Source: a virus
Virus genome (UHGV): UHGV-1344453
Strand: one strand, 5' to 3'
Length of the DNA stretch: 10,449 bases
Within the stretch, counting starts at the first letter, position 1, and each line of letters starts with the position of its first letter. The notes below the pieces were generated by a model. That model saw only the letters and a list, made by a program, of their open reading frames with translations, was not told the DNA's origin and made no database searches. The translations under genes and the position numbers were made by a program. Shown here piece after piece: positions 9,957-10,449 of this stretch.

Positions 9957-10022
9957 TTTGAGGTTTTTAATTCTTGTATGCTGAAAAACTTATTAATTAT
10001 CAACTGATAACAAAAATTAGTA

Positions 10023-10117
10023 AGAAATACCCGTATCACCTGATCTGGATAATGCCAGCGTAGGGAAGTCACGGACCACCAGGTCATTGCTTCTTCACGT
10101 TATGGCAGGAGCAAACT
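10023..10117 (+). promoter_or_regulatory. 3' portion of the thiM TPP riboswitch (aptamer 3' half plus expression platform); the 5' half of the aptamer is not present upstream
   Basis: From ~10023 the sequence AGAAATACCCGTATCACCTGATCTGGATAATGCCAGCGTAGGGAAGTCACGG...GGCAGGAGCAAACTATG matches the E. coli thiM leader as I recall it. The expected preceding GGGGTGCCCTTCTGCGTGAAGGCTG is replaced by AT-rich element sequence. Confidence 0.65.
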
Positions 10118-10449
10118 ATGCAAGTCGACCTGCTGGGTTCAGCGCAATCTGCGCACGCGTTACACCTTTTTCACCAACATTCCCCTCTTGTGCACTGCAT
10201 GACCAATGATGTGGTGCAAACCTTTACCGCCAATACCTTGCTGGCGCTCGGTGCATCGCCAGCGATGGTTATCGAAACCGAAGAGGCCAGTCAGTTTGCG
10301 GCTATCGCCAGTGCGTTGCTGATTAACGTTGGCACACTGACGCAGCCACGCGCACAGGCGATGCGTGCCGCCGTTGAGCAAGCAAAACGCTCTCAAACAC
10401 CCTGGACGCTTGATCCGGTTGCGGTTGGTGCACTCGACTATCGCCGCCG
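10118..10449 (+). CDS. thiM: Hydroxyethylthiazole kinase ThiM, N-terminal part (3'-partial at window edge)
   Basis: ATG at 10118. Translation [56 protein letters not shown]... matches E. coli ThiM from memory. Not in the ORF track because it runs off the window. Confidence 0.9.

Follow-up and report, generated by a model that had tools for sequence, protein, structure and literature searches.

What becomes of a metabolite sensor when a mobile element ends inside it is the question raised by the right end of the window, by which we mean the whole 10,449-nt stretch of the virus genome UHGV-1344453. Everything 5' of position 10023 is DNA of a capsid-forming PICI-type phage satellite, while the 98 nt at 10023-10120 (AGAAATACCC...CTATG, reading AGAAATACCCGTATCACCTGATCTGGATAATGCCAGCGTAGGGAAGTCACGG...GGCAGGAGCAAACTATG in the window) are 100% identical to the thiM leader of E. 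coli K-12 MG1655, from nt 41 of its TPP aptamer to the start codon, whose ATG stands at 10118-10120. Identity with the native leader stops at 10023, where the window has gtaAGAAAT and the native leader ctgAGAAAT; directly 5' of this breakpoint K-12 has ...GGGGTGCCCTTCTGCGTGAAGGCTG and the window an AT-rich ...ATCAACTGATAACAAAAATTAGTA. The first-pass annotation, made from the letters alone, had placed the 3' half of the riboswitch and its expression platform from about 10023 to the thiM start, which the identity to K-12 and an exact core at 10023-10036 now confirm, and had named GGGGTGCCCTTCTGCGTGAAGGCTG as the missing 5' half, a sequence that does stand directly upstream of the breakpoint in the K-12 leader. 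That this half is absent from the window and replaced by AT-rich element DNA also holds: it was not found anywhere in the window with up to three mismatches allowed, the P1 5' strand, the P2 5' strand and P3 of the TPP aptamer are all lacking from the whole window, and Rfam at its gathering threshold reports no TPP riboswitch there. The features of the right end are as follows.

9890-9955, plus strand: P-arm block of the attachment site, a block of ~65-75 bp that is repeated beside int at the left junction (strain 158)
9997-10010, plus strand: TTATCAACTGATAA, inverted repeat that nearly fits an IHF site (TATCAA-N4-TAA), with an A/T tract before it, from reading of the sequence
10023-10036, plus strand: att core AGAAATACCCGTAT, the crossover region, the sole bases common to attB (K-12), attL and attR
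10023-10070, plus strand: residual 3' TPP aptamer, nt 41-88 (P2 3' strand, P4-P5 pyrophosphate-sensor arm, P1 3' strand), from K-12 and Rfam alignments
10071-10117, plus strand: intact thiM expression platform, identical to K-12, with its helices in RNAfold models
10087-10094 and 10107-10111, plus strand: anti-SD UUGCUUCU and SD AGGAG, within the thiM expression platform
10118-10449, plus strand: thiM (hydroxyethylthiazole kinase), first 110 codons before the gene leaves the window, from the open translation and the RefSeq thiM annotation of matching sequence

A junction of this kind might reflect an assembly error, a chimeric contig or a one-off illegitimate rearrangement, the more so as a run of N at 3760-3772 marks the sequence as unfinished and the left junction lies outside the window; the first-pass annotation had itself named an assembly artefact as what would undo its reading. 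However, in a census of 5,426 complete E. coli genomes the identical attR junction recurs in 75, the corresponding attL junction in 72, and the HNH-TerS-TerL module directly adjoining thiM, as in the window, in 38 (the thiM leader is uninterrupted in 4,728). A search of IMG/VR and metagenome contigs for junctions in which the core follows a base other than G gave 18 further, independent contigs with the right junction, and all 18 bear the same right arm. Together with the reciprocal left junction and its 14-bp direct repeat, and with independent publication of the site (PMC6092414, Table S1), these counts refute the artefact reading, to which we assign practically no weight; the junction is real.

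The satellite itself was identified by Pfam and PHROG matches, which underlie every line below but the last. All satellite genes in the window point toward thiM.

3-9409, plus strand: satellite body, cf-PICI type
3-1310, plus strand: primase/D5 helicase, C-terminal part
1841-2251, plus strand: SSB
about 3054-4224, plus strand: HK97-type major capsid protein, with an N run inside
4260-4835, plus strand: prohead protease
4837-6051, plus strand: portal
6048-6386, plus strand: head completion protein
6383-6679, plus strand: head-tail adaptor
6679-7119, plus strand: HNH endonuclease
7408-7764, plus strand: TerS
7748-9409, plus strand: TerL
9695-9756, plus strand: cos-like segment, 84% identical to the annotated cos of Stx phage phiP27, by similarity only

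No tail genes were found in the window with Pfam or PHROG. The gene set is that of a cf-PICI, with its own capsid, protease, portal, connectors, HNH endonuclease, TerS and TerL, without tail or lysis genes, in elements of 10-15 kb. The accompanying layout, in which int, an alpA-type regulator and a primase-replication module stand at the left of a unidirectional element, is found in the annotation of strain CEA106S, and the window holds only the portion of it from the C-terminal part of the primase onward. CEA106S carries a complete equivalent between rcnR and thiM with the same gene order (int, regulator, Icd-like, DUF4222, primase, SSB, PerC, capsid ... TerL), its two cores lying 15,262 bp apart. 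The cf-PICI class, with EcCIEDL933 as its prototype, matches in gene content (HK97-type capsid, protease, portal and connectors as well as primase, HNH, TerS, TerL and a cos-like site); its members likewise lack tail genes, are transcribed in one direction and bear the integrase at the left end, and they are induced by a helper phage and packaged into small capsids of their own with helper tails. Such elements occupy six attB sites in E. coli, four of them common with classical PICIs (bioRxiv 10.1101/2022.09.08.507074). TerS is annotated as belonging to the P27 family in relatives, and the sequence suggests that packaging would be of the cos type. An apparent frameshift in the capsid gene (ORFs 3009-3788 and 3745-4224) was rejected as an artefact because a run of 13 masked bases at 3760-3772 splits the gene; in a relative, from E. 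coli SB0258h1, the capsid gene is a single one of 1,170 bp with 98.9% identity.

SB0258h1 (L039) is also the closest complete-genome relative of the satellite body (3-9400; 98.1% identity over 9.4 kb), and its satellite sits at the gcd-hpt locus with a different integrase. In turn, EcCI224 (strain Ecol_224) and the element of strain 158 join the thiM-site int/att module to another morphogenesis module, a protease-capsid fusion with DUF1441. The same body thus occurs with another integrase and the same integrase with another body, which argues that the int/att and packaging modules are freely exchanged.

Since the window carries attR only, the left junction and the integrase are described from close relatives. 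The left junction of strain 158 has the sequence ...GACTCGGGGTGCCCTTCTGCGTGAAGGCTG-AGAAATACCCGTAT-TTTCTCATTTAGTG... and its right junction ...AAAAATTAGTA-AGAAATACCCGTAT-CACCTGATCTGG..., and the 14-bp direct repeat stands at both ends of the elements in the complete genomes of Ecol_224, 158 and CEA106S (element sizes 10.6, 11.1 and 15.3 kb). The first-pass annotation had proposed to look at the far junction for the 5' half that was displaced and for a directly repeated core, and both are present at attL in these three strains. Because attB, attL and attR share only these 14 bp, and because they lie inside the thiM TPP aptamer, the proposal that the satellite integrated within the riboswitch is upheld.

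In the relatives, a tyrosine integrase of 406 aa with Arm-DNA-bind_3 and Phage_integrase domains begins 189 bp inside attL. Its probable arm-type binding sites, judged from sequence, are the tandem copies of TGTGTGGTCAG(T) at 9933-9943 and 9945-9955, whose 12-mers are present in both arms; the tandem motif is kept in 21 of 21 right junctions and in Salmonella left arms. Between these arm sites and the core lies TTATCAACTGATAA, in which TATCAA is kept across divergent right arms, and 9997-10010 may serve as an IHF site, being a near-match to the consensus WATCAANNNNTTR. The attP core predicted by joining the two arms contains an imperfect dyad (AGAAATAC-CC-GTATTTTCT), which is consistent with core-type binding sites. 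This predicted attP (...TTAGTA-AGAAATACCCGTAT-TTTCTCAT...), the excised or circular form, was not found in IMG/VR, which is mostly a collection of integrated forms. We thus read 9890-10036 as the attR of an integrase-inserted PICI/cf-PICI satellite whose core, AGAAATACCCGTAT, lies inside the thiM TPP aptamer, leaving a split leader that would be blind to TPP and a thiMD operon removed from its own promoter, and we put the probability of this reading at about 0.85.

Under this reading the tyrosine integrase, which has an arm-binding domain, inserted the satellite site-specifically at the 14-bp core, aptamer nt 41-54. What stands at attL after integration is nt 1-54 of the aptamer with the thiM promoter candidate, facing the integrase gene; attR has nt 41-88 of the aptamer followed by the expression platform and thiM-thiD, behind 10-15 kb of co-oriented satellite genes. 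With the att site inside a thiamine-sensing riboswitch, integration therefore halves the sensor and parts thiM and thiD from their promoter. The integrase probably targets this core for its conservation, the core being among the most conserved stretches of the riboswitch, by the same logic that governs tRNA and tmRNA att sites.

The residual aptamer can be described residue by residue. On aptamer numbering the core is A41-U54 and takes in the 3' end of the J3-2 CUGAGA motif together with the P2 3' strand and J2-4. The expression platform and nt 41-88 remain at attR, and nt 1-54 at attL. Missing at attR are the P1 5' strand, the P2 5' strand, P3 and G40, whereas the P4-P5 arm and the platform are retained, 10023-10117 being identical to K-12 and the P4/P5 hairpin appearing in the predicted folds. 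We take G40, G42 and A43 to be the residues that touch the pyrimidine ring, and G60, C77 and G78 those that touch the pyrophosphate, as in the crystal structures of 2006; residue identities at these ligand-contact positions fit the numbering used.

One could envision that the right arm of the satellite substitutes for the lost 5' half, so that a working riboswitch is regenerated at the junction. In E-value mode cmscan does fit the full-length TPP model over 9949-10083, with a 48-nt insertion in P3, a helix whose length varies within the TPP family, and regeneration of the riboswitch does occur with another island at this site (see below). However, the split aptamer scores 36.5 bits against Rfam RF00059, where the native K-12 aptamer scores 71.2 and the gathering threshold is 54.3, and in the Rfam alignment this score comes almost wholly from the 3' half. 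Little of the aligned 5' half pairs, each of the five P3 pairs and part of those in P1 and P2 being flagged as non-standard; the conserved J3-2 CUGAGA becomes GUAAGA at the junction, with loss of G40; RNAfold shows no three-way junction; and the arm is better read as integrase and IHF sites, its variable positions showing no pairing pattern. The score and the non-canonical pairs led us to reject the right arm as a mimic of the aptamer 5' half, an explanation we consider very unlikely, and since the split aptamer falls below threshold we conclude that the satellite does not rebuild the sensor.

The preferred reading, a sensor bisected at attR, bears on regulation. Ligand binding by TPP riboswitches needs both sensor arms and P1, and neither split fragment should therefore bind TPP. 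With the pyrimidine-sensor arm and P1 gone, the leader would be unable to bind TPP and translation of thiMD would be blind to thiamine. By RNAfold, the split leader still forms the hairpin between the aptamer 3' strand and the anti-SD, which frees the SD, and it also forms the alternative SD-sequestering helix UUGCUUCU/AGGAGCAA; the two states lie within ~1 kcal/mol of each other, and the accessibility of the SD hinges on the 5' end chosen (0.06-0.40 unpaired). Because the balance is so close and so dependent on the 5' end, we describe the split leader as ligand-blind rather than constitutively on. The leader from core to ATG is native sequence in 21 of the 21 junctions examined and thus carries no evolutionary signal, either of relaxed or of new selection.

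As to transcription, the sole consensus-like promoter in the native intergenic region (TTTACA-17-TACCAT) stays at attL, aimed at int, with no terminator between the two; that thiM is parted from its native promoter, as had been proposed, is thus supported by a promoter candidate that remains at the left junction. No sigma-70 consensus promoter was found in 9300-10200, a looser hexamer scan gave nothing credible in the right arm, and no plus-strand intrinsic terminator lies between terL and thiM. Given neither a promoter match nor a terminator upstream of thiM, thiMD would most likely be transcribed by read-through from the satellite or from a weak, unrecognised promoter in the AT-rich right arm. 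We infer, on good grounds, that TPP control would be lost and that thiMD would rely on element-derived transcription, as the first-pass annotation had suggested.

A harsher outcome would be that thiMD is silenced and not merely deregulated, leaving lysogens short of ThiD and reliant on external thiamine. Such an outcome would fit the lack of a sigma-70 consensus promoter in the ~700 bp upstream of thiM, the established requirement of ThiD for de novo TPP synthesis, and the repression in which satellite operons are expected to remain without a helper phage, as is established for PICIs (PMC6092414). On the other hand, every occupied genome listed has thiM and thiD annotated as intact genes; the junction occurs in many host backgrounds (human, bird, pig, wildlife and river), which suggests little cost; read-through is possible across the terminator-free stretch from terL to thiM; and cells are known to need very little of the thiamine enzymes. 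We therefore regard silencing as improbable, if still a serious contender, and favor deregulated, satellite-dependent expression.

The junction also leaves its mark on annotation. PGAP places no riboswitch at either end of the elements examined. An 89-aa ORF on the minus strand at 9818-10087 runs over the junction, half of it element DNA and half riboswitch remnant; it is listed as a hypothetical protein in some RefSeq genomes (A34, CEA106S), has no PHROG match and is probably a spurious call made by the fusion. Annotation pipelines thus silently omit the riboswitch in occupied strains, and some add a spurious junction ORF.

Part of this description is already in print. Fillol-Salom et al. (2018, ISME J, PMC6092414), in their Table S1, list EcCI224 of strain Ecol_224 (CP018948.1, 1961620-1972242, 10.6 kb) with att core AGAAATACCCGTAT and 'frmR-thiM' as the att gene. 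When we re-derived this element, its cores lay 10,609 bp apart in CP018948.1, and both coordinates and core matched the publication exactly. EcCI224 is the same as the window's element in core, location ('frmR-thiM' corresponding to rcnR-thiM), integrase and both att arms, but differs in having the protease-capsid fusion and DUF1441 module in place of the window's full capsid, portal, HNH, TerS and TerL set. The publication presents the site as intergenic, and the word 'riboswitch' is absent from its main text; a literature search that left out many subscription papers found none in which the thiM riboswitch is tied to a PICI, a satellite or a prophage. The att core, the location and the element family are thus already published, and the bisection of the aptamer without repair appears to have gone unremarked. 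The new points are these: the target is recognised as the TPP aptamer; the PICI lineage splits it and leaves it unrepaired; relatives in Salmonella share the core; and another integrase, unrelated to the first, also uses the thiM aptamer and repairs it.

Use of the core is not confined to E. coli. Salmonella enterica integrases with 69-74% identity, located downstream of rcnB, adjoin ...CTTTGTGAAGGCTG-AGAAATACCCGTAT-TTTCTAA... with the same arm repeats, whereas remoter E. coli relatives of the integrase (~67% identity) use a site at cspD-clpS instead. The integrase sub-lineage is therefore specific for the thiM core across at least two genera, the cross-genus evidence being Salmonella contigs from a protein database and a single IMG/VR contig, L015, whose flank is not that of E. 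coli. In a collection of one genome per species we found no close relatives of the integrase and no exact match to the attL pattern. The IMG/VR contig (L015, 6261-14743; IMGVR_UViG_2529293239_000005) has the same core and left arm, but the host DNA upstream resembles neither E. coli nor Salmonella and two large ORFs (680 aa and 379 aa) lie near the left junction; from this sequence the core is probably used in a third enterobacterial host.

A separate observation concerns E. coli A34 (NZ_CP028741.1; L001, 5004-20270), in which the element has thiM on its right flank and cspD/yljB on its left. The A34 integrase occupies the position typical of PICIs at the cspD-clpS site, and waaB/waaO and part of an IS1 are also present in the element. 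The mixed flanks argue that two satellites recombined whose sites lie ~1.26 Mb from each other in K-12; such an event would have inverted a large segment, roughly symmetrically about the terminus.

The thiM riboswitch is also the target of a second, unrelated island of ~7.7 kb, which occupies it in 182 of the 5,426 genomes (strain 503440 and 181 others). Its orientation is that of the PICI, with int beside attL and thiM to the right, and its tyrosine integrase has no BLASTP similarity to the PICI integrase and no arm-binding domain. The att identity segment of this island is 82 bp and spans aptamer nt 2-83, so the full riboswitch is regenerated before thiM. The aptamer is consequently found at both ends (in E. 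coli 503440, L004, 16068-16163 and 23852-23948), scoring 71.2 bits before thiM and 61.3 bits directly upstream of the island's own int, an arrangement that could mean vitamin-controlled expression of a recombinase. O157:H7 strains retain an integrase-less remnant of this island (strain 7636, L005, 5562-6100), and their thiM riboswitch is the regenerated copy, without the native upstream region; loss of the promoter region is therefore tolerated in a successful lineage. The two elements may also meet at one site: in one IMG/VR contig (L011, 1-495; IMGVR_UViG_2703718798_000014) sequence of the second island's right arm (...GCAAGCCACTTCCCCTAA...ATATAGAGATTCAACCAAACG) stands before the PICI left junction in place of the native thiM promoter region, from which it follows that the PICI entered a riboswitch copy regenerated by the other island.

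Known systems offer partial parallels. Prophages that act as regulatory switches include phi10403S in comK of Listeria, and skin and SPbeta in B. subtilis. They resemble the thiM satellite in that an element interrupts a host genetic element that precise excision would restore, and they differ in that coding genes are interrupted and excision is part of host development. PICIs excise upon infection by a helper phage, and nothing suggests that excision of the thiM satellite is programmed by the host. A closer likeness is to integrators at tRNA, tmRNA and other structured-RNA loci (P4-type integrases, and phiEf11 in the ffs 4.5S RNA; PMC12540744), which also target a short conserved stretch of an RNA locus, with an arm-domain tyrosine integrase and a site usable across genera. 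These integrators, however, normally carry the displaced segment, so that the gene is rebuilt, whereas the thiM satellite does not replace it; moreover, their target is the RNA product of a gene, and the target at thiM is a cis-regulatory sensor.

Taken more widely, and with the caution due to a reading that we hold to be possible rather than probable, the thiM aptamer may be a tRNA-like landing pad for at least two unrelated integrase lineages in the Enterobacteriaceae. The PICI lineage would then act as a natural riboswitch knock-out that rewires thiMD, making it TPP-blind, satellite-driven and boosted on induction, with the host thiM promoter captured for int, and the integrase of the second lineage could be under vitamin control. 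The TPP riboswitch is naturally split in some 1.4% of complete E. coli genomes and duplicated in another 3.4%, and the locus exhibits two contrasting strategies, splitting without repair and duplication with repair. Riboswitch aptamers thus join the short list of conserved structured RNAs that serve as integration targets. Riboswitches are usually seen as fixed parts of the operons they control, and the thiM locus departs from that view; isogenic pairs of lysogen and cured strain would show, in a natural setting, how much a cell gains from feedback by TPP on thiMD.
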